Shown: positions 1-23,532 of the stretch, piece after piece
Numbering within the stretch: position 1 is the stretch's first letter
Layout of the letters: each line of letters opens with the position of its first letter
Virus record (IMG/VR): IMGVR_UViG_2531839130_000010
Reading direction: 5' to 3' (one strand)
DNA: 27,627 bases
From: a virus
Lineage: Duplodnaviria; Heunggongvirae; Uroviricota; Caudoviricetes
Translations under genes and position numbers: made by a program
The notes under the pieces: generated by a model
What the model was told of the DNA's origin: nothing
What the model saw: the letters and a program-made list of their open reading frames with translations, nothing else
The model's database searches: none

Positions 1-228
1 TTAGCCTTTTTTATTTTGATTTTTAGATTGTTCAATGTGATAATTTAATACTTCTCTCTTTGCCTCTTCATAGGTTAGCTCTCCATTGATTACCTTAGTT
101 TTTATTTCATTAAAAAATGAGGAGCCTTTGGGATCTTTACTTGATAAAAAAAGACTGGCTTCAGCTCTCCGAAAAGCTTCTTTCCTTGCTTCTATAGAAA
201 ATGAATTAGCAGGGTTATTTTTGTTCAT
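1..228 (-). CDS. Small hypothetical protein (75 aa); weak resemblance to YhfG/VbhA-type small antitoxins
   Basis: ORF track, complete with stop at 1-3. Charged helical sequence with a ..AEASL...INGELTYEEAKREVLNYH pattern loosely like Fic-antitoxin family, but the S-x-x-x-E-G inhibitory motif is not evident. Speculative. Confidence 0.3.
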   Translation of the reverse strand: MNKNNPANSFSIEARKEAFRRAEASLFLSSKDPKGSSFFNEIKTKVINGELTYEEAKREVLNYHIEQSKNQNKKG

Positions 229-1105
229 AAGTTGAAGTGCCTTTATTATTTATATTCAAGATGTTTTTATCTACAAGAGTTAGTCTTAACTCCGAGAATT
301 TATTTCCTGATATTTTATAACACTGATTTTCATTTTTTTCAATATAAAGAGATTTGCTTTCTGAGCTACCACATGTCGTAGATGTTCTTGCATCGAGAAA
401 AATAAACTTTTCTTGAAATCTTTCAATGTATTTCATTGCTGTCATGCTAATAATAAAAAGAGCAACTGACACAGCAAAAAGGGATAAGCCTGATACTAAA
501 CGATTAAAATTAAATTTCCTTTTAATAACTAATGAACTAGCTAAATTGACCATGTTATAGGGGACCATAATTATAAGTCCTATTAATATTATTTTTTCAG
601 GAAGATTGTTCACCTGTATATGATGTTGAGCCAAGCTTCCAATATATACTGAAATCATAGAGGATATTACTATTTTTGCTGGGGATACATCTCGCAAAAA
701 TATGTATATATAGACTGTAATTGCACAAATCATTGCCCCTATTGGAAATGAGAGCATGAAAGCATAAGCTAATGTCGAGTAATTAAGGTTTTCTGGGACT
801 ATACCATAAGCTATGTCAAGCTTAAACTTTGCGATCCATAAGCATACGGAATATGTAAAGCCAGTTACGCCCCATTTAACTACTGCATTATTAAATACTT
901 TATTTAATAAATCACGATATCCTATGTATACACTGGTTAATAAAGCTATAGATGATAGGAAAATTGGAGCGGCAATGTATATATTTTCTAGCCATAATGG
1001 GTTTTCTACAATCAAGTATCCAAAAGGTATTAAGTATATTATAGCCAATAGTTGAGGGTTGTTTAATTTTGGTGATGCATCAACTAACTTATTTTTATAA
1101 TCCAT
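215..1105 (-). CDS. Polytopic membrane protein of unknown function (296 aa)
   Basis: ORF track; several long hydrophobic segments (about 6 predicted TM helices by eye) and a polar C-terminal tail; AT-rich codon usage typical of island cargo. Confidence 0.5.
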   Translation of the reverse strand: MDYKNKLVDASPKLNNPQLLAIIYLIPFGYLIVENPLWLENIYIAAPIFLSSIALLTSVYIGYRDLLNKVFNNAVVKWGVTGFTYSVCLWIAKFKLDIAYGIVPENLNYSTLAYAFMLSFPIGAMICAITVYIYIFLRDVSPAKIVISSMISVYIGSLAQHHIQVNNLPEKIILIGLIIMVPYNMVNLASSLVIKRKFNFNRLVSGLSLFAVSVALFIISMTAMKYIERFQEKFIFLDARTSTTCGSSESKSLYIEKNENQCYKISGNKFSELRLTLVDKNILNINNKGTSTYEQK

Positions 1106-1114
1106 ACAACGTCC

Positions 1115-2188
1115 TTATTTCAACTTTAACGCCAAATCTTCAGCTTTTGGATGATAATACCGCATTAGCATTCTTGGATCTTTATGTCCTGTAATTTTGG
1201 TTAGTTCATGCATAGGGAAAATTTCAGCAAGTCGAGAAGTTGCTTCATGTCGAAGGTCATGAAATCTTAAATCTTTAAGGAAAGATTCATCACATAATGA
1301 GTTTGTTTTCTCGTATCGTTCTCTGGCTCGTTTTACAGCTCGGTCAAAAGCTCGGGTAATCGCGTCTGCACGCATATCAAAAACCTTATCAGCAGCTGGC
1401 TTAGAATGTTCCTTGAGACTGGACAGTATCGTAATGGCTTTCGTTGATAAAGGGACATCGCGGGCATTACCATTCTTAGTATCCGGCAGATGTGCAACTC
1501 GCCGATCAAGATCGATAAAGCGCCATCGAAGCTCTGCGATTTCGCTACGGCGCATGGCTGTCTCTAACGCCAGAAGAATGATTGCTGGCAATACTAATGA
1601 ATGTGTTGCGGCGATGATATGTTCGATCTCGTTGGCTATTTGCTTTCCTGACGTAACACCGGTTTTCTCAGAAACTACAGGCAGCGCTTCTAGGCGTCTG
1701 GTCCTGGAGTTCTTGGGTTGGGGTTTGCGAATGGCCTCTACGGGGTTCAGCAGGCTCTCCATGCCCCATTCTTTCCGCGAAACATTGAATACATGAGAAA
1801 GTAAGGCCAAACGCCTTAAAACGGTTGCAGGAGCATAGATTTTCAACCATTCATCTCTCAGCTTGGCGACATCGGCACTCCTGATGCTGGCCATATAGTT
1901 TTTCGCCAGCTGAGTGCCTTTTAGTATCCGCACCAATGATCGGTCTTGCACTGCCCCTTTTTTGTCGGGAACAATCTCTTTTTCATATCGCGTTAGGGCT
2001 TCATACAATGTCGTAGATTCCGCTTCGCTGCGGCTAAGCCAAACTCCTCTCGCCATTTCTGACTCGATCATTTTGGCCCAAGCTTCTGCTTCTACTTTGG
2101 TGTTAAAGGTTTTGGTTTGAGAGGGAAAACCACGTTTACGGATTTGAGCTTCCCATTGGTAGTTACCACGTTTGCGTATAGTCGCCAT
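1115..2188 (-). CDS. Tyrosine recombinase / phage-type integrase (about 357 aa from the ATG at 2188)
   Basis: C-terminal catalytic motifs FHDLRHEATS (HxxR) and LMRYYHP (catalytic Tyr); N-terminal arm-binding-like MATIRKRGNYQWEAQIRKRG. The track start at 2218 is a TTG; the ATG at 2188 is more plausible. Confidence 0.85.
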   Translation of the reverse strand: MATIRKRGNYQWEAQIRKRGFPSQTKTFNTKVEAEAWAKMIESEMARGVWLSRSEAESTTLYEALTRYEKEIVPDKKGAVQDRSLVRILKGTQLAKNYMASIRSADVAKLRDEWLKIYAPATVLRRLALLSHVFNVSRKEWGMESLLNPVEAIRKPQPKNSRTRRLEALPVVSEKTGVTSGKQIANEIEHIIAATHSLVLPAIILLALETAMRRSEIAELRWRFIDLDRRVAHLPDTKNGNARDVPLSTKAITILSSLKEHSKPAADKVFDMRADAITRAFDRAVKRARERYEKTNSLCDESFLKDLRFHDLRHEATSRLAEIFPMHELTKITGHKDPRMLMRYYHPKAEDLALKLK

Positions 2189-2276
2189 TTCTGTCTGATT
2201 CCTAACGAACTGTGGCAATATTGTGGCAAAAAATCCATTTAAATTCGATAGGTATTGATTTTACAAGATCAATTTA

Positions 2277-2325
2277 CGCATTCGTAATGCGAAGGTCGTA
2301 GGTTCGACTCCTATTATCGGCACCA
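2277..2325 (+). tRNA. 3' fragment (about 49 nt) of a tRNA-Thr(CGU) gene (thrW-like); pseudo-tRNA / att site
   Basis: Readable anticodon stem-loop cgca-TTCGTAA-tgcg (anticodon CGT), T-arm gtagg-TTCGACT-cctat, acceptor 3' strand tatcggc + A + CCA ending at 2325. No complementary 5' acceptor strand (gccgata) upstream, so it is a 3' fragment, not a complete gene. Confidence 0.7.
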
Positions 2326-2328
2326 TCA
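2302..2328 (+). repeat. attL core of the P4-like element: 27-bp direct repeat gttcgactcctattatcggcaccatca (tRNA-Thr 3' end)
   Basis: Exact 27-bp identity with 15192-15218; flanks differ on both sides. Confidence 0.8.
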
Positions 2329-2489
2329 CCTAGTTTTCCCAAGTCAACCCACATCAACAAAATCATTTAAAAACATATATATTACGTTGTTTTCATACGT
2401 TTGAGGTCAACCCTTGTCTCTTGAAATCAACACGCGGTTGGGGGCACAATCAGGGGCATGTTCTGTTCGGTCTAGGAAATGTGCCCCCA

Positions 2490-3680
2490 ATGATGCTGAA
2501 TGCCCGCAAGGTTGAAGCTGCGAAAGGAAAAGAGAAGAGCTACAAGCTGTTTGATGGAGGTGGCCTATACCTTCAGGTCGAACCTAATGGCTCGCGTTAC
2601 TGGCGTATGAAATACCGTTTTGCTGGTAAAGAGAAACGATTGTCCTTTGGTGTTTATCCAACAGTCACACTTGCTGATGCCAGACAAAAACGAGAATACG
2701 CGAAGAAACTACTCGCAGCAGGTGAAGATCCCGGCGAAGTCAAAAAAGCCAAAAAGCAGGCTTTAAATGCAGCGAGTGAGACACTTAACCCATTCAGAGA
2801 AGTGGCGTTAGAGTGGCACAAAATGAAATCACCCAAATGGTCTGAGGGCTATGCTTCCGACATCATTGAGGCATTCGAGAAAGACATTTTCCCGCATATT
2901 GGGCACAGACCTATAGCTGATATTCAGCCCCTTGAACTGCTTGAAGTTCTGAGGTTGATAGAAGCTCGAGGCGCTATGGAGAAAGCGAAGAAAGTCCGTC
3001 AGCGATGCGGTGAAGTTTTTCGCTATGCCATCGTAACGGGTAGGGCAATCTACAATCCGGCACCGGATCTTGCCAGTGCGATGCAAGGACATGAAGCAGT
3101 CCACTATCCATTCCTCAAAGCCAACGAACTACCGGAGTTCTTTAATGCCCTTAATTCTTATTCAGGAAGTCCAATTGTATTGTTGGGGGCGCATTTACTT
3201 ATCCTGACAGGTCTACGAACTGGAGAACTACGAGCAGGTGAGTGGCGAGAGGTGGATTTTGATAATGCGGTGTGGGAGATCCCAAAAGAACGTATGAAAA
3301 TGCGTAGGAGCCATATTGTCCCGTTGTCAAAACAAGCATTATCCCATCTCAAAAGTTTGAAAGAACTAACTGGGAACTACCCGCTGATGTTCCCTGGACG
3401 CAACGATCCCAGCAAATTTATGAGTGAAGCAAGCATTAATCAGGTGTTTAAACGTATTGGATATGCAGGGCGTGTTACGGGGCATGGTTTCAGGCATACG
3501 ATGAGTACAATCCTACATGAGAAAGGATTTAACAGCGCTTGGATTGAAACCCAGCTTGCTCATTCGGACAAAAACTCTATTCGTGGAATTTATAACCATG
3601 CCCAATATCTCGAAGGGAGAAGAGAAATGATGCAATGGTATGCTAATTATTTATCTGAGCAAATTGGTACTCATAAATGA
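2490..3680 (+). CDS. int: P4-type tyrosine integrase (about 396 aa from the ATG at 2490)
   Basis: N-terminal P4-integrase signature KVEAAKGKEKSYKLFDGGGLYLQVEPNGSRYWRMKYRFAGKEKRL; catalytic HGFRHTMST (HxxR) and C-terminal Tyr region. Track start 2421 is a TTG. Confidence 0.9.
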   Translation: MMLNARKVEAAKGKEKSYKLFDGGGLYLQVEPNGSRYWRMKYRFAGKEKRLSFGVYPTVTLADARQKREYAKKLLAAGEDPGEVKKAKKQALNAASETLNPFREVALEWHKMKSPKWSEGYASDIIEAFEKDIFPHIGHRPIADIQPLELLEVLRLIEARGAMEKAKKVRQRCGEVFRYAIVTGRAIYNPAPDLASAMQGHEAVHYPFLKANELPEFFNALNSYSGSPIVLLGAHLLILTGLRTGELRAGEWREVDFDNAVWEIPKERMKMRRSHIVPLSKQALSHLKSLKELTGNYPLMFPGRNDPSKFMSEASINQVFKRIGYAGRVTGHGFRHTMSTILHEKGFNSAWIETQLAHSDKNSIRGIYNHAQYLEGRREMMQWYANYLSEQIGTHK

Positions 3681-4501
3681 ATATTTTAAAAATTAATAAT
3701 ACTGATTCTCTGCTCAGAGATTACTACCAGTTGGATGAAGCTTCAGAAAAAATTGGTTGTAGTGAAAAGGATATACTCTGGTTTGCCAGAGAACGAGATG
3801 TAGAGCTATGCATGGAATTCCATGATGATGAGTATGATGTTTCATGTGGTTTGAAGATTGATGGTCAAATAGATGAGTTCTTATCTAATCTGAAATATTT
3901 ACCACGAGATAGAAATGGCAATATTATGTTGTCAGACTTAAGTTCTATAAGAATCCCTGATGAAGATAATTTAATTGATAAAAATGGTTTTATTCGATGC
4001 TTCATATCCGGTTTATGGGCTGTTGATTATGAATATAAAGATCTGTTAGTTAAGCATGAGGGGCAACCGGATTCCTGGCCTATTCATTTTCTACTGGCGG
4101 GTACGCCTAATATAAATTGTAAGGTAATTCTTTATGTAAATTATGATGAAAAAGAAAATTATTATCTTTTTGAGGTTTTGTGGATTACAAAGGTACAGAT
4201 TCAAAAATTCATTGATATAGTCTTATGCGAACAAAAGCGGATAAAAAACGCCAATAAATATAAATCACAATCTGAGGCGCAAAAACAAAAACATGCTGTT
4301 CCTCGAGCTGAAATACTCATGGCTATTATTTCGCTCTATCATCGTGATATGAGGCTAAGAAGAGAGAGTCCAGCAGCGATAGCTGATTATCTTTTTCAAC
4401 ATGCCAGTGAGTTCTGGCCTAAGACCGGAGAACCGCCTTTGAGCTATGATACTGTTGTTAGTTTGCTACGTAGTTGCATGAAAAACATTAAGTTTAACTA
4501 A
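3677..4501 (+). CDS. Hypothetical protein (274 aa), AT-rich orphan cargo gene between int and alpA
   Basis: ORF track; ATG overlaps the int stop (ATGA); composition visibly more AT-rich than the flanking P4-like backbone; no motif I can recognise. Confidence 0.5.
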   Translation: MNILKINNTDSLLRDYYQLDEASEKIGCSEKDILWFARERDVELCMEFHDDEYDVSCGLKIDGQIDEFLSNLKYLPRDRNGNIMLSDLSSIRIPDEDNLIDKNGFIRCFISGLWAVDYEYKDLLVKHEGQPDSWPIHFLLAGTPNINCKVILYVNYDEKENYYLFEVLWITKVQIQKFIDIVLCEQKRIKNANKYKSQSEAQKQKHAVPRAEILMAIISLYHRDMRLRRESPAAIADYLFQHASEFWPKTGEPPLSYDTVVSLLRSCMKNIKFN

Positions 4502-4626
4502 ATATTAACAATTGTTGTGGCTAATGATTTTGAATTTTTTTCATTAGTCACATTTTTCTCATTTATAACCTATGTTTTAATTTTCCGTGTTGAAGCCAAT
4601 AGACTTAGATAAACGGAGAATGATGA

Positions 4627-4917
4627 ATGTTATCTAAACATGATAATACTACTTTGCAACGACCTTCAATGGATTCTCTGATCGATATGAAGTTTATTAC
4701 TTCCAATTGTTTATTAAGTGATAAATGGATTTATCGATTGATTTCTCTGAATCGCTTTCCAAAACCTATAAAAATAGGTCGGATGTCACGATGGCGCGCT
4801 GCTGATTATTATAAGTGGCGAGATGGGTTTGAAGAAAACTCAGGTCAACAGTTTGAGGGGATGAGAAATAAGGCAAGAGCAATTAATAAAGGGAATAGAT
4901 TATCACCTACTCCCTAA
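4627..4917 (+). CDS. alpA: AlpA-family phage transcriptional regulator / excisionase-like protein
   Basis: Core LLSDKWIYRLISLNRFPKPIKIGRMSRWRAADYYKWRD resembles AlpA-type HTH (RFPKP motif, conserved W after HTH); GGAG RBS 8 nt upstream of the ATG. Confidence 0.7.
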   Translation: MLSKHDNTTLQRPSMDSLIDMKFITSNCLLSDKWIYRLISLNRFPKPIKIGRMSRWRAADYYKWRDGFEENSGQQFEGMRNKARAINKGNRLSPTP

Positions 4918-4949
4918 GCCTTAATTGATAGTTAGTAATATTTAACTGA

Positions 4950-5123
4950 TTAGCCTTTAGGGTCAATCCCGCGTGATTGGAGTTCTTTGCGTAAAATTCT
5001 TTTAATCCAAGTTGCCAACGCGCTATCTCCATCTTTGCGCATTTCGTTTTCGAGTTGCAACCTAAAATCGTCGGTAAGACGCATTTGGAATGGTGGAGAA
5101 CGTTTCTCTTGTGGTGTTGACAT
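4950..5123 (-). CDS. Small ribbon-helix-helix (Arc/MetJ-like) DNA-binding protein, 57 aa (below ORF-track cutoff)
   Basis: Manual translation of minus strand: MSTPQEKRSPPFQMRLTDDFRLQLENEMRKDGDSALATWIKRILRKELQSRGIDPKG; beta-strand then two helices typical of RHH. The overlapping plus-strand ORF 4987-5187 looks non-protein-like. Confidence 0.5.
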   Translation of the reverse strand: MSTPQEKRSPPFQMRLTDDFRLQLENEMRKDGDSALATWIKRILRKELQSRGIDPKG

Positions 5124-5163
5124 GGTAATTACCCTAGAATATGATGACTACATGGTAATTACC
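5117..5163 (+). promoter_or_regulatory. Candidate sigma70 promoter (TTGACA-17 bp-TATGAT) with two copies of the palindrome GGTAATTACC (operator-like)
   Basis: TTGACA 5117-5122, TATGAT 5140-5145; 15-mer direct repeat (g/t)ACATGGTAATTACC at 5119-5133 and 5149-5163, each containing the perfect 10-bp palindrome GGTAATTACC, 30 bp apart; overlaps the start of the RHH gene. Confidence 0.45.
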
Positions 5164-5254
5164 ATTGTAAGTATAGTTCGCTTGTAAAAGCAATGCCCGA
5201 TTGTGCGGGAACACAAATCGGGCATTTAACCAACCGTTATAAGAGGTAACGAAG

Positions 5255-5431
5255 ATGGCTAAACAGAAGTGTACCTGGTTATTTGCGGCGATCAACCGCA
5301 GTCAACGCAATGCCCGTCCTGTGATGTTAAGGATCACCGCAGATAACGAGCGGTCAGCGCGGCGCAGACTTGCCCCGGACTATGTACTGAGCTTTGCCGG
5401 GCGCATTCCCTGCGGAGGTGAACATGCGTAA
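5255..5431 (+). CDS. Small protein (58 aa), possibly Icd/Ash-like P4-family protein
   Basis: Manual translation MAKQKCTWLFAAINRSQRNARPVMLRITADNERSARRRLAPDYVLSFAGRIPCGGEHA; AAGAGG RBS upstream. Family assignment is from memory only. Confidence 0.45.
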   Translation: MAKQKCTWLFAAINRSQRNARPVMLRITADNERSARRRLAPDYVLSFAGRIPCGGEHA

Positions 5432-5783
5432 TTATCCGCATCCCGGCGAACGCTGGCAGCATGAACGTGGCTGGACGGTCACGATTATCCGATTAATAGA
5501 AGCCTCGCCCTCTGTGGCGCTGGTTAATCCTGAATTCAGCTGTGAAGTGCTGATACGTCATGACAGCGACAACCAGCTTTCTTCCTGCCCTCTGGCATGG
5601 TTTGAACAGCGATATACGCGCCTGTTTGATGTACCACTCTTTAAGCCTGCACCAGCTCCTGCAGGCGGTAGTGGTTCCGGCCCGCTGACACTGCATCCGT
5701 CTGTGCTATTTATCCGCTGGCGGGAGCGTAGCATATGGCGTTCTGCTGAGCCTGATGACGGTCACTATTCAAAGTTTCTCTGA
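5424..5783 (+). CDS. Hypothetical P4-like protein (about 119 aa from the ATG at 5424)
   Basis: ORF track (5394 start is a TTG); ATG at 5424 has a GGAGGTG RBS and overlaps the upstream stop (ATGCGTAA), suggesting translational coupling. Confidence 0.5.
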   Translation: MRNYPHPGERWQHERGWTVTIIRLIEASPSVALVNPEFSCEVLIRHDSDNQLSSCPLAWFEQRYTRLFDVPLFKPAPAPAGGSGSGPLTLHPSVLFIRWRERSIWRSAEPDDGHYSKFL

Positions 5784-5814
5784 CACAATACCGCTGAAAA
5801 CGGAGTAATCCACG

Positions 5815-6099
5815 ATGAATATTTCAAACGGGCACAACGGTGCTCAGGGCCACACTTTGCCTGAAAAACACAATACCGGTGTTTTTGCCTATGGGTTGTC
5901 AGAGGACAGTTTCGGAAAGCTGACCCGCGCAAGAAATGCCTGCGACATGCTCCAGCTTCTCTTTTCTGAATACCCGTCTCAGGCCGGAGCACTGGACACT
6001 GGCTGTGCGCATGGTGTCGCCGCGCTGATGGAGTACCTGCTGGCAGATTTGACGGATATTGCACACAGCTGCGCACTGATTGAAGGAGGTGCCAGATGA
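5815..6099 (+). CDS. Hypothetical protein (94 aa)
   Basis: ORF track; GGAG RBS; stop overlaps next start. Confidence 0.5.
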   Translation: MNISNGHNGAQGHTLPEKHNTGVFAYGLSEDSFGKLTRARNACDMLQLLFSEYPSQAGALDTGCAHGVAALMEYLLADLTDIAHSCALIEGGAR

Positions 6100-6479
6100 A
6101 CCAGCCGCAGGTTTCCATTTTCCCGGCAGAAATGACCACCGCGCTTTACCGGCGGGCTATTGCTTCAGCATGGCGGCAGAAAATGCTGAACGAAACTGGC
6201 AGTGATCAGTATGGTCCGCACAGCCTGACGGTGGAGCGTATTGAAATGGCCATTGCGCTGCATATCGAGTGCGTACTGATTAACGAGTACGGCGAAGCAC
6301 AGGGCGCCGCTGCCGCGCTGGCACTGCTGACTGACATGCTGGAGCCGTCACTGCTGACCGCGCCGCCGGTACTGACCGCGCGCGGCTGTGAAGTGATGGC
6401 GGAGATGTACCGCACGCTTCCGGCGGCCTTTGATGACTTCTGCAGTACCGGTGTGACGTTGTATCAGGGGGAAGTATGA
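6096..6479 (+). CDS. Hypothetical protein (127 aa)
   Basis: ORF track; AGGAGG RBS; ATGA overlaps with neighbours on both sides (operon). Confidence 0.5.
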   Translation: MNQPQVSIFPAEMTTALYRRAIASAWRQKMLNETGSDQYGPHSLTVERIEMAIALHIECVLINEYGEAQGAAAALALLTDMLEPSLLTAPPVLTARGCEVMAEMYRTLPAAFDDFCSTGVTLYQGEV

Positions 6480-9148
6480 CAATACAGACGGTTACGCAGA
6501 TTTCAGCCGCCGCACGGGGGAAATGGCCCGTTATTCTCCAGATGCTGCGTATTGATGTACCTGAAAACGGCAGGCACGGTCCCTGCCCGAAATGTGGGGG
6601 CAAGGATCGTTTTCGCCTTGATGACCTTGACGGGCGCGGGACGTGGATCTGCAGCCAGTGTGGCAATGGTGACGGTCTGGATCTGGTTAAGCTCGTAACC
6701 GGTTACAGCATCAGAAAGGCTGCGCAGGAGGTGGCGCAGGTGCTTAATGTGCCGGATGTGCAGGAACTGCCTGTTAAGCCTGCCAGACAAAAAGCCCCTA
6801 AACGCGACATGGGTCTTACCGTGGCGGCGCTGATGAAAGAGAGCCACACGGGAGAAAGCGCCTATCTGACAGGAAAAGGGTTCGCCGGATACCCGGCCTC
6901 TCTGACCGGAAGCGTGCAGCATATCAGCGGTAAGGATTTTCCTGCCGGTTCCCTGCTGTTACCACTCACGACCAACACCGGAGCCGTGACTGGTGCACAG
7001 CTTATCGCCCCGACGGGTGAAAAAAGCATACTGCCCGGCAGCACGATGAAAGGCGCGTTTGTGTCGCTCAGCCCGTTACCGTCTGAACCACCGGTACAGG
7101 TGGTGATTACCGAAGGTTACGCTACGGCGCTGACGGTAAGTCAGCTCACTGCCGGATGCGTAGTGGCTGCCATATCTGCGGGCAACCTGCCCAATGTGGC
7201 GCAGTCGCTGCGGGCACGCTGGCCTGAGGTAAAAATTATCATCGCCGGTGATAACGATTTTCAGGACGGAGGTGAGAATCCCGGCAGAGCCTTTGCTGAA
7301 CGGGCGGCAAAAGCTGTTGGCGGCTGGATGACGCTGCCACCAGGAGAGATTAAGGCTGACTGGAATGACTTTCATCGGGAGCACGGTATTACCCGTGCCC
7401 GTGAAGCCTTTCGCAACGGTCTGGTACTGTGCGGGGAAGGCCGCACGCAACTGCCGCACGGGTTCCGTCTTACCCAGGAATATCTCTGGTATGAAAAGCA
7501 GGTACAGCGCAACGGTGAGACGGAGATCCAGAACGTCAAAATATGCAGCCCGCTGCGCGTGACGGCAATCACCTGCGATGCCGATGGCGGTAACTTCGGA
7601 CGACTGCTGGAATGGGAAGATACGTGGGGTGAGTGTCGCCGCTGGGCGATGCCGATGGAAATGCTGAGCGGCAGTGGTGAGGAACTGCGCCGGGTACTGC
7701 TGGTTAACGGGCTGTCTTATATCAGCACCACCGGTGAGGCACGCGCACGCCTGATGGAATATATCTCACTGTGTAAACCGGAACGCCGCGTGACCTGCGT
7801 CAGTCGTACTGGCTGGCATGGTCAGGTTTACGTCCTGCAGGATGAGGTCAGCGGTGAAGGTGCAGAGGGTGTCATTCTCCAGACCACTTCCGTGCAGGGG
7901 CGTGATTTCCGCGTGTCGGGCACAACAGAGGAATGGCGGGAGCATGTATCCCGCTACTGTACCGGCAACTCCCGCGTGGCATTTGCTGTCAGCCTGGCCT
8001 TTGCTGCACCACTGTTACGGCTGGTTGGTATGGACGGCGGCGGCTACCACCTCAAAGGGGAATCGACAGACGGTAAGACCACCACCATGAAAGCGGCAAC
8101 CTCCGTCTGCGGCGGGCCTGACTACTGGCAGACATGGCGGGCCACCGGCAACGCGCTGGAGGGATGCGCCAGCCGCCGCAACGATGCCGCCATGATGCTT
8201 GATGAGATCCGGGAAGTTGACGGACGCGAGGCAGGCAATATCGCCTACATGCTGGCAAACGGTCAGGGCAAGGGCCGTGCCGGTACGGACGGTGAGCTGC
8301 GTACCCGTAAGCAGTGGCGCCTGTTGTTCTTTTCAACTGGCGAGTTGTCTCTGACCGAACATGCGGCAAAGGCCGGTGAGCGTACTTTTGCCGGGATGGA
8401 AGTCAGGATGATCCAGATCCCCAGCGATTCCGGGAAGTTTGGCGTTTTTGAGGAGCTGCACGGCTTCGACAGCGGCAAGGCTCTGGCAGAGCATCTTGAA
8501 TGGGCCACGTCCTGCTACTACGGTTCGCCGTTCCGGGAGTGGCTGAAAGCACTGACCGCTGATCTTAACGGACTAACGGCACAGGCAAAATCGCTGATGA
8601 AGGAATATGCTGCCGCCCTGACTCCGAAAGATGCAGGCAATCAGGTGGGCCGGGCTGTGAACCGCTTTGCTCTGGTGGCGATGGCAGGTGAACTGGCAAC
8701 CCGTCTGGGTATCACCGGCTGGCCTGAGGGTGAAGCACTGCGGGCAACCCGCGTCTGCCTGAACGCATGGCTGAAAGATCGCGGGCACACCGCCAATCAG
8801 GAAGATATCGCCGCACTGGAGCAGGTTCGCAGTTTCTTCACCGCGAATCAGTACAGCCGCTTTGCAGACTGGTATGACGAGCGCAACCGCCCCGGCAATA
8901 TGGTGGGCTGGCGCAGGGTGGAGAAAGGCAGTACCGCGCAGGGCACGGAAGCTGTCACTACGTTCTATGTCATGCCGTCCGGCTGGAAAGAAATCTGCAG
9001 GGGATTTGACCCGCGCAAGGTGGCGCGTCTGTGCGCAGATCGTGGATACCTGCTGCCCTCCACTGATGGCAAACTCCAGACAACCATTCGCCCGCCAGAG
9101 ATGAATCCCCGCAGGCTCTATGTCTTCAACAGCGAGGTGCCGGGTTAA
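6476..9148 (+). CDS. P4 alpha-type primase-helicase (890 aa)
   Basis: N-terminal zinc-binding CPKCGGKD...CSQCG; Toprim-like VVITEGYATA ... IIIAGDNDFQDGGENPG; C-terminal helicase Walker A GESTDGKTT and Walker B-like MMLDEIRE. Confidence 0.9.
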   Translation: MTIQTVTQISAAARGKWPVILQMLRIDVPENGRHGPCPKCGGKDRFRLDDLDGRGTWICSQCGNGDGLDLVKLVTGYSIRKAAQEVAQVLNVPDVQELPVKPARQKAPKRDMGLTVAALMKESHTGESAYLTGKGFAGYPASLTGSVQHISGKDFPAGSLLLPLTTNTGAVTGAQLIAPTGEKSILPGSTMKGAFVSLSPLPSEPPVQVVITEGYATALTVSQLTAGCVVAAISAGNLPNVAQSLRARWPEVKIIIAGDNDFQDGGENPGRAFAERAAKAVGGWMTLPPGEIKADWNDFHREHGITRAREAFRNGLVLCGEGRTQLPHGFRLTQEYLWYEKQVQRNGETEIQNVKICSPLRVTAITCDADGGNFGRLLEWEDTWGECRRWAMPMEMLSGSGEELRRVLLVNGLSYISTTGEARARLMEYISLCKPERRVTCVSRTGWHGQVYVLQDEVSGEGAEGVILQTTSVQGRDFRVSGTTEEWREHVSRYCTGNSRVAFAVSLAFAAPLLRLVGMDGGGYHLKGESTDGKTTTMKAATSVCGGPDYWQTWRATGNALEGCASRRNDAAMMLDEIREVDGREAGNIAYMLANGQGKGRAGTDGELRTRKQWRLLFFSTGELSLTEHAAKAGERTFAGMEVRMIQIPSDSGKFGVFEELHGFDSGKALAEHLEWATSCYYGSPFREWLKALTADLNGLTAQAKSLMKEYAAALTPKDAGNQVGRAVNRFALVAMAGELATRLGITGWPEGEALRATRVCLNAWLKDRGHTANQEDIAALEQVRSFFTANQYSRFADWYDERNRPGNMVGWRRVEKGSTAQGTEAVTTFYVMPSGWKEICRGFDPRKVARLCADRGYLLPSTDGKLQTTIRPPEMNPRRLYVFNSEVPG

Positions 9149-9182
9149 GGCTTTGCGTGAGTCTTATTTATTAAGGGTAACA

Positions 9183-9370
9183 GGTGAAACAGGTGGAACA
9201 ACCGTATTTTACAGGGCTGAACCTGTTCCACCTTCTGAAATAGTGAGGTGGAACAGATGTAACGCCAGCCAATCCGCTGTTCCACCTTGTTACCCGCGAT
9301 GTTCCACCGGTGCAGTGTATATAAATGTCTTATAAAACAAAGCTGTAACACATGTTTCACCTGTTCCACC
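9183..9370. repeat. Iteron cluster: 8 copies of TGTT(C/T)CACC in both orientations (candidate crr/ori-type replication element)
   Basis: Copies at 9183-9191(-), 9192-9200(-), 9224-9232(+), 9247-9255(-), 9278-9286(+), 9300-9308(+), 9353-9361(+), 9362-9370(+), immediately downstream of the primase gene. Confidence 0.6.
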
Positions 9371-9458
9371 GCATCAGGGACATAAAGCAGACTGAAACAG
9401 AGGGCATTTTTATCTGGCTGGCTTTCATAGCCACGTCTGAATAACCGCAAGCGCCCGT

Positions 9459-9514
9459 TGTGCCAGCCACCACACACTGAACACCGATAGTGTGCTTGTG
9501 TCAGCCACGACACA
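9459..9514 (+). promoter_or_regulatory. Two TGT-N12-ACA dyads (Ogr/Delta-type activator boxes) upstream of the sid-like gene; candidate late promoter
   Basis: TGTgccagccaccacACA at 9459-9476 and TGTgtcagccacgacACA at 9497-9514, sharing a cagccac core; the sid-like ATG is at 9549. Confidence 0.4.
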
Positions 9515-9548
9515 ATTGACGTAACGAACCAACCCGACAGGAGAAGTC

Positions 9549-10292
9549 ATGAACAATACCGCAGTAAATAACAACCTTTCCACTTTTCCGGCTGTAACGC
9601 AGCGGGCACTGGAAACCATGAACACAGCCAGAAACGCATGGCTTGAAGCACGTCGTCAGCAGAAAGCGGCAGCGGATAATATTGCGACAATCCGCCAGCG
9701 TCGCGCTGAAATGGAAGCCACGACGAACACACTGAATGAGGAGTGGCGCACGCTGTTTCGTGAAAGTCAGGGCGTGGTCTCAAAGGAAATGAAAAAACTG
9801 CGCACGGAAATTGCGCTGGGACGAGAAACGCTTGAGGATTTTGATGAGCTGCTGGCGGCTCAGGAAAGCGAAAATGCACTTTTGCCGCAGAAAGCTGCAG
9901 AATTAGCCGGAAAGTATATCCACGCGCATAACATTCTTGTGGATATTCGCGCAAAACAAATCTGGGAGGATTTTATGCAGTCGCATGGAAAAGCGCTTAT
10001 TCAGACGCTGAGCCTGCTTAAATCCACAATGGGCCGGGAAGCCAGTGCCGTTGTGGGTGTGGTGAATTCAGTTAATGACCCGGACACAGTGCTGAAAGAC
10101 TTTATTCATAAACATATCACCAGACCGGCTCTGGCTAACGATGCGATGCCTGAGCAGGACCCGGTGTTTAAACTGGCGGGAGTTGCCCCGGATTATGCGG
10201 CGCGTCTGGATTTCAGTAATCAACTCTCTCCGGCAGCTATGCATAAAATTAAGGTTCGTCAGGAACTTGCTGAGAAGGAGAAAGCAGTATGA
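9549..10292 (+). CDS. Sid-like (capsid size determination) protein candidate, 247 aa
   Basis: Position after primase/iterons and before psu-like and delta genes; size close to P4 Sid; helical, charged sequence; AGGAGA RBS. No motif-level proof. Confidence 0.4.
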   Translation: MNNTAVNNNLSTFPAVTQRALETMNTARNAWLEARRQQKAAADNIATIRQRRAEMEATTNTLNEEWRTLFRESQGVVSKEMKKLRTEIALGRETLEDFDELLAAQESENALLPQKAAELAGKYIHAHNILVDIRAKQIWEDFMQSHGKALIQTLSLLKSTMGREASAVVGVVNSVNDPDTVLKDFIHKHITRPALANDAMPEQDPVFKLAGVAPDYAARLDFSNQLSPAAMHKIKVRQELAEKEKAV

Positions 10293-10840
10293 CGGCCCGA
10301 GGCACGCCTGACCAGGCACTTACCAGTTTTCGGAATGCCCGCATTCTGTGGGCCGGACATAATGAGAGCCGAAAAGCCGTTGAACAACAGATAACATCTC
10401 TCCTCGCTGCCACAGAAAAACCAGCAGATTATGCCCGACAGCTCGAATTACTGCGGGAACGTCTGGATGTGCTGAAATGGCAAATTAACTGTGCTGCGCG
10501 CGAATGCATTTACTCGCAGCATTTACTGATGGAGGCCTGCACAGAAGCCGCTCTCAGCAATTTTATGCAGGCGAATGGGGCAGCCCTGACATCTGCACTG
10601 GCTCCGTTCCTGAAGGGGCGCGGAGGGGTTGACGTTGCGTCCCGTATATTACGCAGTGCTCTGGTTCGCCAGCTGGCAATAACACCGCCTGAAATTGCTG
10701 GGGATTATCGTGAGATCCTGGATGAATCCGGTTTGATGCCTGACCCCGGGATGATTCGTGATTGCCAGGGTTCTTACACCCCGGCACAACATCTGCGTTT
10801 TCAGCAACGCCTGAATGACATTAACGATATACAGGAGTGA
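10289..10840 (+). CDS. Psu-like (polarity suppression) protein candidate, 183 aa
   Basis: Size and position next to the Ogr/Delta gene as in P4-like elements; AGGAGA RBS; start overlaps upstream stop. Assignment by synteny only. Confidence 0.4.
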   Translation: MTARGTPDQALTSFRNARILWAGHNESRKAVEQQITSLLAATEKPADYARQLELLRERLDVLKWQINCAARECIYSQHLLMEACTEAALSNFMQANGAALTSALAPFLKGRGGVDVASRILRSALVRQLAITPPEIAGDYREILDESGLMPDPGMIRDCQGSYTPAQHLRFQQRLNDINDIQE

Positions 10841-10845
10841 TATTA

Positions 10846-11118
10846 ATGGCACTTAAATGTCCGGAATGCGGTACAGTTGCACACGCCAGAACAGCAGCCT
10901 ATGAAGCTCCGTCAGTTAAACGCTCGTGGTATCAGTGCCAGAATCTGGAATGTTCCTGCACATTTACGGCACTGGAGAGTGTGGATAAGATAATCATGAA
11001 ACCCCGGCGCAATGAACAGGAACCAGACAAATCACAACCCCCGGTAAAACAACAGCAAACGCTCAATCGCTATGGCTCCGCGTCAAAACTGTCAAGCCGT
11101 CAGCAGATTCCTGTCTGA
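10846..11118 (+). CDS. Ogr/Delta-family zinc-finger late-gene transcriptional activator (90 aa from ATG 10846)
   Basis: MALKCPECGTVAHARTAAYEAPSVKRSWYQCQNLECSCTF has the C-x2-C ... C-x4-C spacing and HART motif of P2 Ogr / P4 Delta; AGGAG RBS 8 nt upstream. Track start 10837 is a GTG. Confidence 0.8.
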   Translation: MALKCPECGTVAHARTAAYEAPSVKRSWYQCQNLECSCTFTALESVDKIIMKPRRNEQEPDKSQPPVKQQQTLNRYGSASKLSSRQQIPV

Positions 11119-11141
11119 TTAGAAAAAAACGCCCACGTAAT

Positions 11142-11165
11142 CCCGGTCGAGTACCGGGATTTTTA
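11142..11165 (+). terminator. Rho-independent terminator after the delta gene
   Basis: Hairpin cccggt-cgagt-accggg followed by aTTTTT. Confidence 0.6.
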
Positions 11166-11512
11166 ACACCTTTTCCCTGGCTGGCCTGAGAGCGTATGAG
11201 TGCATGTCTATGGCGCATGAAAATGCATGAGTCTTATGCACCCTTTTTGAGGCGAAAACCTTTGTGTGGTGGTATCTGAGACGATTTATGGCATGCATGA
11301 AAACCAGTCTGTTAAGCGAAGCGGGCAGGCGTGCGGGGCTGCCCGCGTAAGGGCGTTGAATGGTATAACTATGGCACGGTTACCGCATGTTTTGAGCTGT
11401 AATCGAAGTTATGAAAATTACTATATAAAGCGGTCGCTGTTGTGGAGATACGATTGCGGGAAGTGATGGAAAGAGCTATAAAAAGTACAGAGGATAGTTT
11501 AATGAGGGTATT

Positions 11513-12790
11513 ATGAACCGTCAGCCGTTTACTTCAGCAGCACTTAAACGAAACTTAAGTGAAAGTGAGAAGGCTTATTATTTTAAAAAAAATAATGTTG
11601 CTGAGTTAGAATCATTAATTAGTGATGCCGTTTTAATTGCTAATGAGAATTTTCGCTCTGGTGTGAGTGTAAAGAAACTAAATATTAAGGGACGCTGCGT
11701 TTACACTGCTTCATGTTTGAAGGAAAAAATAATACTTAGACATTGCAATGCAAATTTAAAATGCCTTGAATCGCTTCGTCCCAAACAACGAAATACAATA
11801 ATTAGTGAGCTTAAAATTTATTTGGAAGAAGGTACTCCATTCAAAATATATCGTTTGGATATAAAGTCTTTCTTTGAATCAATTGATTTACCGCAGCTTT
11901 TTCAGCTCTTACATAACGAAACACGACTGTCTAGACATACAAAAAATTTGCTAGAATGGTATCTTAAATCGTGTGAAAGGCTTCACTCTTCGAAAGGATT
12001 ACCTAGAGGGTTAGAAATTAGTCCTATGTTATCAGAATTGTACTTGGCACAATTTGATAATAGTATTCATAGGCATCCAGAAGTATTTTATTATTCAAGA
12101 TTTGTAGATGATATGGTAATCGTTTCAAGTGGTTGTGAATGTGAAGCGTCCTTTATGGAATTTATACAAGATGTATTACCAAAGGGATTGGCTTTAAATA
12201 AAAATAAATTAAAAATATCTCCATGCATACCAAAGAGAAGTAAGGGTTTAAATAAACAGGATAAATTGCTTCATGAATTTGACTTTCTAGGGTACTCGTT
12301 TTCTATAATAGACACACCTTTGAGCAAAGATGGTGAGATTAATAGCTGTTACAGAAAGGTTGTTGTTAATTTATCTAAATCTCGCCTGAAGAAAATTAAA
12401 ACAAGAATAGCTAGGTCTTTCTACTCTTATCATATTAATGGTGATTTTAAACTATTGCTAGACAGGATTTCTTTTTTGACTAGTAACAGGGATTTAAATC
12501 GCAAAATAAAATCGTTAAGTTCTTTAGAAAAAAGCAAGATAAGTACAGGTATTTATTACAGTAATGCGAAGTTAGATGTTGACTCCATATCCCTAAAAAA
12601 ATTAGATGACTTTTTGCTATATTGTGTGCAATCTAATACTGGGCGTTTGAATAGTGTTGCAAAAAAACCTTTTAATTTGAAGCAAAAAAAAGAACTGCTA
12701 AGAAATAGTTTTAGAAAAGGCTTTGTGGATAGAGTATATAGAAAGTATAACTTTAAGCGCTATACTGAGATTACAAAAATATGGTTATAA
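11513..12790 (+). CDS. Reverse transcriptase, 425 aa (UG3-like; first gene of a DRT type 3-like pair)
   Basis: RT motifs read directly: YRLDIKSFFESI (motif 1/2), GLPRGLEISPMLSELYL (motif 4), RFVDDMVIV (catalytic motif 5), FLGYSF (motif 7). Strongly AT-rich versus the P4 backbone; stop overlaps next gene start. Confidence 0.8.
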   Translation: MNRQPFTSAALKRNLSESEKAYYFKKNNVAELESLISDAVLIANENFRSGVSVKKLNIKGRCVYTASCLKEKIILRHCNANLKCLESLRPKQRNTIISELKIYLEEGTPFKIYRLDIKSFFESIDLPQLFQLLHNETRLSRHTKNLLEWYLKSCERLHSSKGLPRGLEISPMLSELYLAQFDNSIHRHPEVFYYSRFVDDMVIVSSGCECEASFMEFIQDVLPKGLALNKNKLKISPCIPKRSKGLNKQDKLLHEFDFLGYSFSIIDTPLSKDGEINSCYRKVVVNLSKSRLKKIKTRIARSFYSYHINGDFKLLLDRISFLTSNRDLNRKIKSLSSLEKSKISTGIYYSNAKLDVDSISLKKLDDFLLYCVQSNTGRLNSVAKKPFNLKQKKELLRNSFRKGFVDRVYRKYNFKRYTEITKIWL

Positions 12791-14799
12791 AGAAAAACAT
12801 TAAACTTGATAAGAAAGATTATCTCAGGGCTTTACTATGTGATACACTGCCCGGTGATTGTCCAATTATTTTTTCAAATGATGGCTTATATATAAACTTA
12901 ACAGAATATGATAGAGTTTGTAATGATTTGTTACATTTTACTCCGGTTTCTTCTTTCTTAAAAAAAATAGTTAACCCTAATTTAGACTCTTCTATTAGTG
13001 TCGCAGATCGCCACCGAGAAAAGAAGAAACAAAGCTCCCCATTTGGCTATTGTATAGTAAAAGATGCCTTTAGCCAAAGACATCTTTCTTTAATTCACCC
13101 AAGATCTCAAATTAATTATTCGGAATTTTATAAAACATACTCATCCGTTATCACATTAAATACTTTAAAAAGTAATTTTTCTATTCGCTACCCACGTAAG
13201 GTCGCTAACTCTTTCTTTTTATATGAAAATAATGCTTTGGAAAAATATAAAGGGGAAGATATCGAAACAACAAAGGATGAGTTAATGAGGAAATATTCAT
13301 CCTCTTATTTTAGTTATGGCGGTTTCAACAGGATATATAAACTATTTCAAAGTAAGATGTTTATTGAGCTTGAGAAAAGATTCTCGGTGATGTGGATGTT
13401 AGATGTATCACATTGTTTTGATAGCATATATACGCATTCGGTTTCTTGGGCATTAAAAAATAAATCATATATAAAAAAACATGTTAAACACAGCAATCAA
13501 TTTGGACAAGAATTAGATACACTGATGCAACGTAGCAATAATAATGAAACAAATGGAATACCTATTGGTTCAGAGTTTAGCAGGGTTTTTGCAGAATTAA
13601 TATTTCAGCGAATTGATTGCAATATTGAGTCATGCCTTCTTAGTGAACATGGATGGGTTAATAATAAAGATTATGTTATATTGAGATATGTAGATGATTT
13701 TATTGTTTTTTGTAATGGTGAGTCAAGTGCCGAAGTTATTACAAAAATAATTAATGTGAAGTTAAATGAATATAATCTACAATTAAATGTAAACAAGCTT
13801 AAGAAGTATTCTAGGCCATTTTGCACTAGCAAGACAAGTTTGATTGTCAAAGTTAATGAATTAATTCGCAATTTAGAAATTAAACTGTATGAAAAACGTG
13901 ATAGTGGCTTTACTTTAAATAAAATAAGAAGTAAGCATGATTTAAAGATATATGTAATTAATCATGTCAAGTCTATATGCATTGAAAATCAAGTGTCTTA
14001 TTCTGATGTTTCATCATATATAATATCATCTCTTTCCAAAAGATTAATATCAATAATTGATATATTACGAGTTCAAGAAAATGAAGATGATGTAGATGTA
14101 AAAAAAAGGATTAAGGACTTAATTTTCACAATAACCGATATTATGTTGTTCTTTTTCAGTGTTAACCCAACTGTTTCATCATCTTATAAATTATCAAAGA
14201 CAATGGTTGTTGTTAATAACTATTTGAATGAAATATCTAGTGACTATAGTAGTATTTTTATGACTACGTTAGTGAATGCTGCGGAAAACATTAATTTTGG
14301 TGAGAATGATAATGGGCTGTTTATTGATGATTTCATTTCAATTGAAAAGGTTAATTTAATCTTGGCTGCTACTTTTTTTGGAGATAATTATCTTATAAGT
14401 GACAGTTTTTTTCATGGAGTTATACATAAAAAGAAATTGGACTACTTTACTATAATCTCACTGCTATTCTATTTTAGAAACAGAAGATCATTCCGAAAAT
14501 TGAAGTGTATAATAGAGGGTGAAATAAAGGAAATATTAAGTTCTAATATGGATTTGCTGCAATCATCGGAAAAGGCACATTTATTTTTGGATGTCATGTC
14601 ATGTCCATTTGTCTCAATAGAGACAAGGCGTTTTTTATATAGAAAATATCTCAAGAGCTATGAGCCAAAGCTGAACAGAAGTCATCTGGAGATTGAGAAT
14701 GATTTGCAATCTCTGCTTCAAACATATTGGTTTGTCAAGTGGGATGAGTTAGATATTGTGAAAATGATTGAGAAAAAAGAATTGAAAGAAAGCTATTAA
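12781..14799 (+). CDS. Reverse transcriptase, 672 aa (UG8-like; second gene of a DRT type 3-like pair)
   Basis: RT motifs: MLDVSHCFDSI (motif 2), GIPIGSEFSRVFAELIF (motif 4), RYVDDFIVF (catalytic motif 5), LQLNVNKLKKY (motif 6); long N- and C-terminal extensions; 10-bp overlap with the upstream RT gene. Confidence 0.8.
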   Translation: MVIKKNIKLDKKDYLRALLCDTLPGDCPIIFSNDGLYINLTEYDRVCNDLLHFTPVSSFLKKIVNPNLDSSISVADRHREKKKQSSPFGYCIVKDAFSQRHLSLIHPRSQINYSEFYKTYSSVITLNTLKSNFSIRYPRKVANSFFLYENNALEKYKGEDIETTKDELMRKYSSSYFSYGGFNRIYKLFQSKMFIELEKRFSVMWMLDVSHCFDSIYTHSVSWALKNKSYIKKHVKHSNQFGQELDTLMQRSNNNETNGIPIGSEFSRVFAELIFQRIDCNIESCLLSEHGWVNNKDYVILRYVDDFIVFCNGESSAEVITKIINVKLNEYNLQLNVNKLKKYSRPFCTSKTSLIVKVNELIRNLEIKLYEKRDSGFTLNKIRSKHDLKIYVINHVKSICIENQVSYSDVSSYIISSLSKRLISIIDILRVQENEDDVDVKKRIKDLIFTITDIMLFFFSVNPTVSSSYKLSKTMVVVNNYLNEISSDYSSIFMTTLVNAAENINFGENDNGLFIDDFISIEKVNLILAATFFGDNYLISDSFFHGVIHKKKLDYFTIISLLFYFRNRRSFRKLKCIIEGEIKEILSSNMDLLQSSEKAHLFLDVMSCPFVSIETRRFLYRKYLKSYEPKLNRSHLEIENDLQSLLQTYWFVKWDELDIVKMIEKKELKESY

Positions 14800-14972: not shown

Positions 14973-15191
14973 AGGTTCAGTTGAGAGTAATTGCTGTCTG
15001 TTTATTGCTTAACCAATACAGTTAGTGGTGCTTACACACCTGATGTTGAGAAACTGACCACACCAATACAACCTTTTGTTTGTCTTCAACTGTGTAGACT
15101 ACTAAACACGAATCAGCAGTTAGGGGCATGTATGGGGGCATTGGTTTTAATTTTTTATAAAATATCAATTTTTTCATATTGTTAAGTTATT

Positions 15192-20210: not shown

Positions 20211-20233
20211 TAACAGGAGAAGGAGAAAACCAA

Positions 20234-21026: not shown

Positions 21027-21035
21027 GGAGAATAA

Positions 21036-23528: not shown

Positions 23529-23532
23529 TCTT

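Follow-up and report, generated by a model that had tools for sequence, protein, structure and literature searches.

The region analysed here is very probably an internal junction in a series of integrative elements arrayed in tandem at thrW, the E. coli gene for tRNA-Thr(CGU). The window, i.e., the whole 27,627-nt stretch of DNA under study, bears two fragments of the 3′ part of this gene. The first (2277–2325) is a shared junction, being both attR of an integrative island of the StmGI_0323 type (hereafter island A) and attL of a P4-like satellite; at the second (15192–15215), the satellite ends with its attR and the next island has its left junction. The two fragments are co-oriented on the plus strand, one per member (49 nt for island A, 24 nt for the satellite); the repeat boundaries are precise junctions, and the length of each repeat fits the element to its left. 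Tandem arrays at tRNA genes are already known, as are the role of thrW as a hotspot and both element families, and RefSeq genomes contain this exact junction. The features of the window are collected in Table 1.

Table 1. Elements, genes and recombination-related sites in the window.
Feature	Coordinates	Strand	Basis or remark
Int-proximal cargo of island A	1–1105	−	GC ~31%; ORFs without significant Pfam match; RefSeq names from identical sequence
VbhA-family antitoxin-like ORF	1–228	−	RefSeq name on identical sequence
296-aa predicted membrane protein	215–1105	−	RefSeq name on identical sequence
intA, tyrosine integrase of island A, 357 aa	1115–2188	−	ATG at 2188, TAA at 1115–1117; Pfam PF00589
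Paired direct repeat TGTGGCAATATTGTGGCA	2211–2228	+	Candidate arm-type IntA binding site, int-proximal arm
thrW 3′ fragment	2277–2325	+	tRNA positions 28–76 including CCA; exact 49-nt match to E. coli thrW
Satellite left arm and int upstream region	2326–2489	+	Read from sequence
Inverted repeat GGGGGCACA/TGTGCCCCC	2440–2448 / 2480–2488		Within satellite left arm
GGGGCATGT	2453–2461		Within satellite left arm
P4-type integrase, 396 aa	2490–3680	+	Arm-DNA-bind_3, Phage_int_M and Phage_integrase
Satellite body	3677–15190	+	Pfam matches; RefSeq names on identical sequence
274-aa ORF, AlpA-like regulator, Icd-like protein	within 3677–15190	+	Pfam/RefSeq
Primase	6476–9148	+	Pfam Zn_Ribbon_Prim, Toprim_3 and DUF927
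Sid-like protein	9549–10292	+	Pfam/RefSeq; Pfam Psu matched twice in the satellite
Psu	10289–10840	+	Pfam Psu
Delta	10837–11118	+	Pfam Ogr_Delta
DRT3a/DRT3b cargo	11513–14799	+	Satellite cargo slot
Second thrW fragment	15192–15215	+	Last 24 nt of thrW; exact repeat, same orientation as the 49-nt copy
Third island of the array (partial)	15216–27627		Serine recombinase (16540–17097, −) and IS elements

The original prediction described two integrase genes and a tRNA-Thr 3′ fragment, and all three are present with coordinates exact to the base. From left to right, the minus-strand intA is followed by the thrW fragment and by the plus-strand gene of the P4-type integrase, so both integrase genes are transcribed away from the fragment, at a distance of about 300 bp from each other. 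The fragment reproduces the last 49 nt of E. coli thrW without a mismatch, the chance expectation for a 25-mer in the window being 0. In satellite-only genomes, the full thrW gene stands where the 49-nt fragment is found here, and the right flank is identical. In other genomes, the DNA rightwards from 15192 comes straight after intact thrW. The view of the region as a tandem array at one att site is supported. Each element is found alone at thrW elsewhere and bears its own arm repeats. The boundaries of the two elements, their independence and the repeat lengths are established.

The fragment itself had been taken for a pseudo-tRNA, and this assignment holds. ARAGORN finds no tRNA gene in the whole window, and the Rfam tRNA model RF00005 scores 22.3 bits at the fragment, below the gathering score of 29. 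It is true that PGAP marks a 112-nt “tRNA-Ser” over approximately 2214–2325 in dozens of genomes, and a real hybrid tRNA gene at this position might be considered. Such a gene is, however, highly improbable and was rejected on the ARAGORN and Rfam results: the former makes no call at 2214–2325, while the subthreshold Rfam score comes entirely from the thrW-derived 3′ part, with the 5′ part aligning poorly. Besides, 112 nt is far beyond tRNA size, and the 5′ part of the “tRNA-Ser” is island A arm DNA with TGTGGCA repeats.

The P4-like satellite on the right of the junction comprises 12.9 kb with int, alpA, icd, primase, sid/psu/delta and DRT3a/b, and it ends at the 24-nt fragment. Pfam matches to its core genes (int, alpha primase, sid/psu and delta) are present in order. 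The integrase matches NCBIfam PRK09692 with 294 bits and has at most about 50% identity to any integrase in the phage collection. GGGGCATGT is found in exact form at just two positions, 2453 and 15123, one in each satellite arm. In many genomes, the P4-type integrase gene comes straight after intact thrW; LR883965 is among the many in which the satellite occupies this position with an identical flank. Our literature search for a P4-like satellite at thrW found no papers.

On the left of the junction, the intA translation matches the Pfam family Phage_integrase (E = 1.5 × 10⁻²⁶), its R/K/HxxR/H/Y catalytic motifs are readable, and the ORF corresponds to the RefSeq entry WP_001396517.1 (“site-specific integrase”). 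For an arm-DNA-binding domain, Pfam gives only a sub-threshold match to Arm-DNA-bind_4 (E = 0.075). The gene is present in 107 of the 5426 E. coli genomes as a single chromosomal copy, and the 49-nt fragment adjoins it in every copy inspected (a subset of the 107). A relationship between intA and the P4-type integrase was rejected, as the two share 34% identity over just 82 aa. The closest phage matches to intA, from Ralstonia and Pseudomonas phages, show about 40% identity, and the best full-length plasmid match among the matches listed (Paraburkholderia) shows 56%. A search for a free attP by way of close intA relatives on plasmids and phages found none among the matches listed; two further records fall in the 60–90% identity bands.

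The TGTGGCA-N4-TGTGGCA pair next to intA is a candidate arm site to which IntA would bind. In each island A locus inspected, the pair is confined to the island ends, against a chance expectation of 0. It is found at both ends in GPEC60, FAM21845, YJ6, L014 and L025, and as an exact copy at one end in PEC1003, L012 and L013. Upstream of the relatives of intA from Enterobacter, Pantoea, Yersinia and Thiobacillus, the pair is conserved as well. The assignment of the minus-strand integrase to the upstream island and of the P4-type integrase to the satellite is borne out by these separate arm repeats together with the genomes that carry a single element.

Island A spans 11–14 kb with the gene order HigA-TraJ-TrbJ-TrbL-...-intA and variable cargo; the slot represented by 1–1105 of the window varies among its copies. 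Its left end and the intact thrW gene lie outside the window and were read from the near-identical genome of E. coli GPEC60-12-649 (99.99% identity over 1–17327). The conserved left arm comes after a tRNA copy in four genomes. Genomes devoid of island A carry exactly the junction predicted for the unoccupied site, and the island boundaries are precise. PEC1003 has proA followed by intact thrW, then island A, the 49-nt fragment and the same satellite, with intact thrW 13.7 kb upstream. Elsewhere, the right-hand neighbour is CP4-6-like DNA (FAM21845) or another P4-type satellite (YJ6), and in Enterobacter, island A is followed by a P4-type integrase with 62% identity. In Pantoea, the 49-nt repeat takes the sequence of the host’s own thrW. 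L014 has the E. coli-type 3′ part at the left junction and the Pantoea-type part at the right junction; since the two types are split in this way, the IntA crossover lies 5′ of tRNA position 50.

It had also been expected that the full thrW gene lies upstream of the window. This is the case in GPEC60-12-649, where intact thrW stands beside proA about 120 kb upstream, though behind another, 109-kb island and a 46-nt fragment, which separate it from the StmGI_0323-type island. At least four elements make up the array in this genome, and the window covers three of them in whole or in part; this had been overlooked. The third is seen in part; the only recombinase in its in-window portion is a serine recombinase, and in other genomes, this island is found directly at thrW. 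The composition of the array is mosaic, the same satellite having different left neighbours among genomes; in five genomes devoid of island A, the arrangement is a minus-strand 439-aa integrase gene, a 46-nt fragment and the satellite. Altogether, at least four integrases that are dissimilar to one another target thrW (intA, the P4-type, the 439-aa enzyme and K-12 IntF), and array members use this gene at two sublocations. One further prophage at thrW is known only by its 46-nt fragment.

It has been described that the core is present again at each end after integration and that either copy may then receive a second element, which gives rise to tandem arrays (PMC7192596); 125 such tandems were counted by Islander (PMC4383910). 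An intact tRNA gene followed by co-oriented fragments, with own integrases and unrelated members that occur independently elsewhere, marks the tandem tDNA arrays of these works, and the same set is found here. Nothing essential differs; the present blocks are 49 nt from the anticodon stem and 24 nt from the T-loop. Among individual systems, StmGI_0323 at thrW of Salmonella Typhimurium was reported in tandem with a P22-like prophage, and its ORFs are reported to have 96–100% protein identity to E. coli proteins (PMC5575072). When island A, as annotated by RefSeq in four E. coli genomes, was set against Table 4 of that paper, the two islands were found to share, at the level of annotation, the target thrW, gene order and near-identical product sizes: HigA, a hypothetical protein of about 97 aa, TraJ, TrbJ (264 aa), a 57-aa product, TrbL, a 70-aa product, a hypothetical protein, a membrane protein and a terminal recombinase annotated as “shufflon-specific”. 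Two more ORFs are common to StmGI_0323 and the PEC1003 copy of island A, one of 366 aa and a recombinase-like one of 200 aa (202 aa in StmGI_0323). Island A differs in its E. coli host, in varying end cargo and in its neighbour, which is a P4-like satellite and not a P22-like prophage. The satellite shares its core set and integration at a tRNA gene with the P4-like satellites known to bear defence hotspots (PMC8628076, PMC9122126), and its cargo slot is occupied here by DRT3a/b.

The arrangement of intF and ptwF in the CP4-6 island of K-12, to which the junction had been compared, proved to be a partial parallel. As with intA in the window, intF lies distally in its island and is read from the minus strand, and an exact 49-nt thrW fragment (positions 28–76) lies beyond its start codon: the fragment occupies 297206–297254 and intF starts at 297096, so that it spans 110 to 158 bp past the start codon. 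The position and the length of the fragment thus support the analogy, but the integrases are unrelated beyond the catalytic fold. IntF (466 aa) shows 25% identity to intA over 171 aa, in the catalytic domain only, and intA was therefore rejected as an IntF orthologue. Moreover, the ptwF fragment in K-12 is followed by the chromosome (yagP), whereas here another element follows.

According to the mechanism we propose, island A would have entered thrW by IntA-mediated recombination with its own attP, a copy of thrW positions 28–76 (49 nt) placed between the paired TGTGGCA arm repeats. The predicted attP corresponds to window positions 2189–2325 joined to the left arm TCTTTTCTAATAAAATCATC...TGTGGCAAAATTGTGGCA. 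The crossover would take place in the 5′ part of the 49-nt block, probably in the anticodon loop, and integration would remake an intact tRNA gene at the left and leave a 49-nt copy at the right by intA. The satellite has an integrase of its own and a shorter identity block of 24 nt, which runs from the T-loop to CCA; its left junction therefore falls on the 49-nt copy. The two integrases thus stand next to each other through the accident of a common target, not as partners. The integrases here may be active at present.

Two further explanations concern the origin of the arrangement as a whole. The array might have been acquired or reshuffled by homologous recombination through thrW repeats or flanking core genes instead of being built in this lineage by site-specific integration. 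The mosaic composition, with the same satellite beside different left neighbours, would suit such a history, as would the hybrids made by recombination within arrays (PMC7192596). Nevertheless, we regard it as unlikely, given the precise junctions at the repeat boundaries and the agreement of each repeat, in length, with the element on its left; such precision reflects past integrase action, and homologous recombination would therefore concern only the history of the array. It is scarcely credible that both integrases belong to one composite element with the internal tRNA fragment as a relic, even if the two genes are divergent, closely spaced and joined in exactly the same way in two genomes. 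Those two are the only ones of 5426 with the exact intA/satellite junction, while intA is present in 107, the satellite follows intact thrW directly in many others, and separate arm repeats mark the two ends of each element. The composite element is in effect refuted by the genomes carrying only one of the two.

The original prediction further held that the satellite had inserted into the secondary att copy, which is not borne out, since either order of arrival yields the same structure. All E. coli copies of the thrW repeat are identical and thus give no signal as to which insertion came first. A 1-nt deletion seen in other genomes affects the chromosome-proximal fragment only and does not help with the order here. 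We lean towards a later arrival of island A because of its thrW-proximal position, the arrangement in which the satellite has another neighbour and no island A, and the lack of reverse arrays: the order satellite, 24-nt fragment, island A was found in none of the 5426 genomes. The opposite history, with island A resident first and the satellite integrating into its displaced 49-nt fragment and not into intact thrW, appears rather doubtful. It predicts exactly the observed structure, and the 49-nt fragment includes the whole 24-nt satellite duplication and is therefore a plausible target, in line with the report that either restored core may be entered (PMC7192596). Yet the entry of island A into intact thrW upstream of a resident satellite would produce an identical structure, and the satellite is common directly at intact thrW, with 99.9% identity, in many genomes. 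Two variants of island A, with intA at about 88% identity, stand upstream of the same satellite, which is about 99.9% identical, and the island A left arm abuts intact thrW in 106 genomes, as compared with 107 carrying intA. The reverse array, possible only if island A came first, is absent, and five genomes have the satellite behind the 439-aa integrase gene and 46-nt fragment instead.

The analysis sets exact limits for three mobile elements of the window and attributes each integrase to the element that carries it. It also flags a recurrent RefSeq mis-annotation, in which a thrW fragment together with island arm DNA is taken for a 112-nt “tRNA-Ser”. Its value is mainly for annotation, and it reveals no new mechanism. 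Tentatively, and with somewhat less than even confidence, it may be supposed that the crossover of IntA-type islands takes place in the anticodon arm and that of P4-type elements in the T-loop, and that the order of thrW arrays is thereby constrained. An anticodon-arm crossover would limit the entry of IntA-type islands to intact thrW or to fragments of at least 46–49 nt, while a T-loop crossover would make any thrW copy enterable for P4-type elements. If this is true, IntA-type islands would almost always be tRNA-proximal, as they are in 106 of the 107 genomes with no reverse array, and the length and position of the fragments could serve to date arrivals at a tRNA hotspot relative to one another.

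The region is one of the internal junctions in an array of tandem islands at thrW, the E. coli gene for tRNA-Thr(CGU) and a well-known integration hotspot, and it is of an ordinary kind. The minus-strand integrase, the tRNA-Thr 3′ fragment, and the P4-type integrase named in the original prediction all lie where it placed them (see table). thrW is among the most often targeted E. coli tDNAs (PMC7545054).

Features of the array in the window (L-numbers denote loci in other genomes)
Feature	Position	Strand	Description
intA (island A)	1115-2188	minus	ATG at 2188; 357-aa tyrosine recombinase; Pfam Phage_integrase, E=1.5e-26
112-nt 'tRNA-Ser' annotation	2214-2325; L004:38931-39042; L001:21084-21195		RefSeq/PGAP
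49-nt thrW fragment	2277-2325		Exact match to E. coli thrW positions 28-76 (last 49 nt, CCA included)
P4-type integrase	2490-3680	plus	396 aa; Arm-DNA-bind_3, Phage_int_M, Phage_integrase
DRT3a and DRT3b	11513-14799		Two adjacent reverse-transcriptase genes, RefSeq names
24-nt thrW fragment	15192-15215		Last 24 nt of the gene
Serine recombinase (third island)	16540-17097	minus	

Since ARAGORN finds no tRNA gene across the whole window, and the Rfam tRNA model reaches only 22.3 bits, below the gathering score of 29, the 49-nt stretch is a fragment rather than a gene; the chance expectation for a 25-mer of it within the window is 0. In dozens of E. coli genomes, RefSeq/PGAP annotates a 'tRNA-Ser' that spans this fragment together with the adjoining arm of island A, the left-hand element. 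Because neither ARAGORN nor Rfam supports it as a real tRNA, the recurrent annotation looks like a systematic false call.

Island A matches StmGI_0323, located at thrW in Salmonella Typhimurium, in gene order and product sizes (PMC5575072). In Salmonella, StmGI_0323 was seen to form a tandem with a P22-like prophage, and the recombinase at its end is annotated as 'shufflon-specific' (PMC5575072), a label also carried by phage relatives of intA that are ~40% identical to it. An ORF identical to intA is labelled a site-specific integrase in RefSeq, and no arm-binding domain in intA reaches the Pfam threshold. The gene was found in 107 of the 5426 complete E. coli genomes, every time as a single chromosomal copy, and the 49-nt fragment adjoins it in all copies inspected. 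The conserved backbone of the island (HigA, a 93-aa ORF, TraJ, TrbJ, a 57-aa ORF, TrbL, a 70-aa ORF, and intA) is accompanied by variable cargo at each end.

Window positions 1-1105 (GC ~31%) contain a 75-aa VbhA-family antitoxin-like ORF overlapping the gene of a multi-pass membrane protein of 296 aa, for which neither Pfam nor NCBIfam gives a match. A truncated relative of this membrane protein may adjoin intA in Pantoea (L012:11085-12031). The slot adjoining intA contains a 465-aa protein in PEC1003 and IS1-flanked corA in FAM21845 and YJ6, other genomes with island A. The thrW-proximal end of island A is a second variable slot (L009:6032-9516, L010:7400-10314, L001:8136-12462), which may be a defence-gene hotspot; depending on the genome, it contains an AAA ATPase and an S8 peptidase, an ABC-three-component system, or hypothetical genes. 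In a Moraxellaceae MAG (L021:9819-9894), a 61%-identical relative of intA adjoins a complete tRNA-Ala(CGC) gene co-oriented with the integrase, a relative orientation opposite to that of the thrW cases.

The interval between the two fragments is filled by a complete P4-like satellite encoding the integrase, an AlpA-like regulator, an Icd-like protein, an alpha primase (Zn-ribbon/Toprim/DUF927), a Sid-like protein, Psu, and Delta, with DRT3a and DRT3b as cargo after delta, in the cargo hotspot of the satellite. An inverted repeat (GGGGGCACA ... TGTGCCCCC, 31 nt apart, window 2440-2488) ends one base before the integrase ATG; it may act as a regulatory hairpin or be bound by an integrase or a repressor. 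In loci where chromosomal DNA (yagP side) borders the right end of the satellite, the 24-nt fragment is short of one G (ATCG-CACCA; L001:34062-34084, L003:32913-32935), whereas the window copy, with another island beyond it, is intact.

The proposal that the minus-strand integrase belongs to the upstream island and the P4-type integrase to a separate element is borne out by their separate occurrences and by the end repeats of each element. The satellite lies directly after intact thrW in many genomes, where its flank is identical to the window from 2326 on, and the exact junction of island A, fragment, and satellite is present in only 2 genomes. The paired repeat TGTGGCA-N4-TGTGGCA (chance expectation 0) is confined to the ends of island A, ~80 nt past the left tRNA copy and ~48 nt ahead of the right fragment (window 2211-2228); the search of the loci detected it at both ends in five and, as an exact match, at one end in three others. 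The pair is also conserved in the DNA preceding intA relatives of Enterobacter, Pantoea, Yersinia, and Thiobacillus, and these pairs are candidate arm-type sites of the IntA family. GGGGCATGT has exact copies at 2453 and 15123 alone, one in each arm of the satellite. The two integrases share only 34% identity over 82 residues.

The window matches E. coli GPEC60-12-649, read across the record origin, at 99.99% over 1-17327 and at 100% over 22194-27627, with IS1 in this genome in place of 17328-22193. The 4.9 kb absent there include a copy of IS3 at 18082-19341 and, at 20358-21026, the ORF of a 222-aa HTH protein. Island A of GPEC60-12-649 is 11.4 kb long, and its left boundary is not intact thrW but a 46-nt fragment at the end of an IS-rich island of 109 kb. 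The integrase of that larger island (439 aa, likewise minus-strand) adjoins the 46-nt fragment. The full thrW expected upstream of the window is indeed found: in GPEC60-12-649 it adjoins proA at a distance of ~120 kb from the 49-nt fragment, beyond the 109 kb island, and in PEC1003 it is nearer, the order being proA, intact thrW, a 13.7 kb island with terminal minus-strand intA, the 49-nt fragment, and the same satellite. Island A also lies directly at intact thrW in FAM21845, followed by CP4-6-like DNA, and in YJ6, followed by a different P4-type satellite. A third island, which directly follows intact thrW in many genomes, starts past 15215; no tyrosine integrase was seen in its part within the window (15192-27627), which also holds several unannotated ORFs. 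Its right side in GPEC60-12-649 ends at IS3 adjoining ecpA, which implies that yagP through ecpB are deleted.

The length of the displaced thrW fragment is set by the element to its left: 49 nt, beginning in the anticodon stem, for island A; 46 nt for the 109 kb island and a prophage in QDFD216; and 24 nt, beginning at the T-loop, for the satellite. Islander lists these two positions within the gene as the 'A' and 'T/J' sublocations (PMC4383910). The 49-nt repeat in Pantoea matches the host's own thrW. Island A of Pantoea sp. KPR_PJ bears an E. coli-type 3′ part at its left junction and a Pantoea-type part at the right one; such hybrid junctions are expected from a crossover 5′ of tRNA position 50, which places IntA exchange on the anticodon-arm side of the 49-nt block. 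The left junction (L014:17570-17770) carries a ~41-nt E. coli-type thrW fragment with non-tRNA DNA ahead of it. These junctions imply cross-genus transfer of island A and then integration of a further element upstream.

The suggested analogy with K-12 intF holds in layout, as in MG1655 the minus-strand intF lies at the distal end of CP4-6, with an exact 49-nt thrW fragment from 110 bp to 158 bp past its start codon. However, IntF is only 25% identical to intA over 171 aa, with no relation past the shared catalytic fold, and likewise 25% identical to the 439-aa integrase of the 109 kb island. Given these low identities, the likeness to K-12 reflects convergence on a single target rather than orthology.

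The view of tandem islands at one att site stands, but its further part, that island A was resident first and the satellite then entered its displaced 49-nt copy, is unproven. After integration the core is present again at each end, and either of the two copies may then receive a second element (PMC7192596); both orders give the same final structure, and hence entry of the satellite into the secondary copy stays one of two readings. Against it, the satellite is common at intact thrW, in copies ~99.9% identical, and the same satellite is preceded by two distinct variants of island A: the window and PEC1003 have 139 mismatches, 134 of them within 1131-2500. Moreover, the left arm of island A abuts intact thrW in 106 genomes, compared with 107 carrying intA, and the reverse array (satellite, 24-nt fragment, island A), possible only if island A came first, was found in 0 genomes; an arrangement devoid of island A (minus-strand 439-aa integrase, 46-nt fragment, satellite) occurs in 5. 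The observations lean slightly to arrival of island A after the satellite, although the genomes lack phylogenetic independence and entire arrays can be moved by homologous recombination.

Neither element family is new to the literature, and RefSeq genomes already contain the exact junction. Only mildly new are the candidate arm repeats of IntA-family elements, the crossover position given by the natural hybrid junction, the strong bias of island A towards the thrW-proximal place, and the recurrent RefSeq mis-annotation of a fragment plus island arm as a tRNA.
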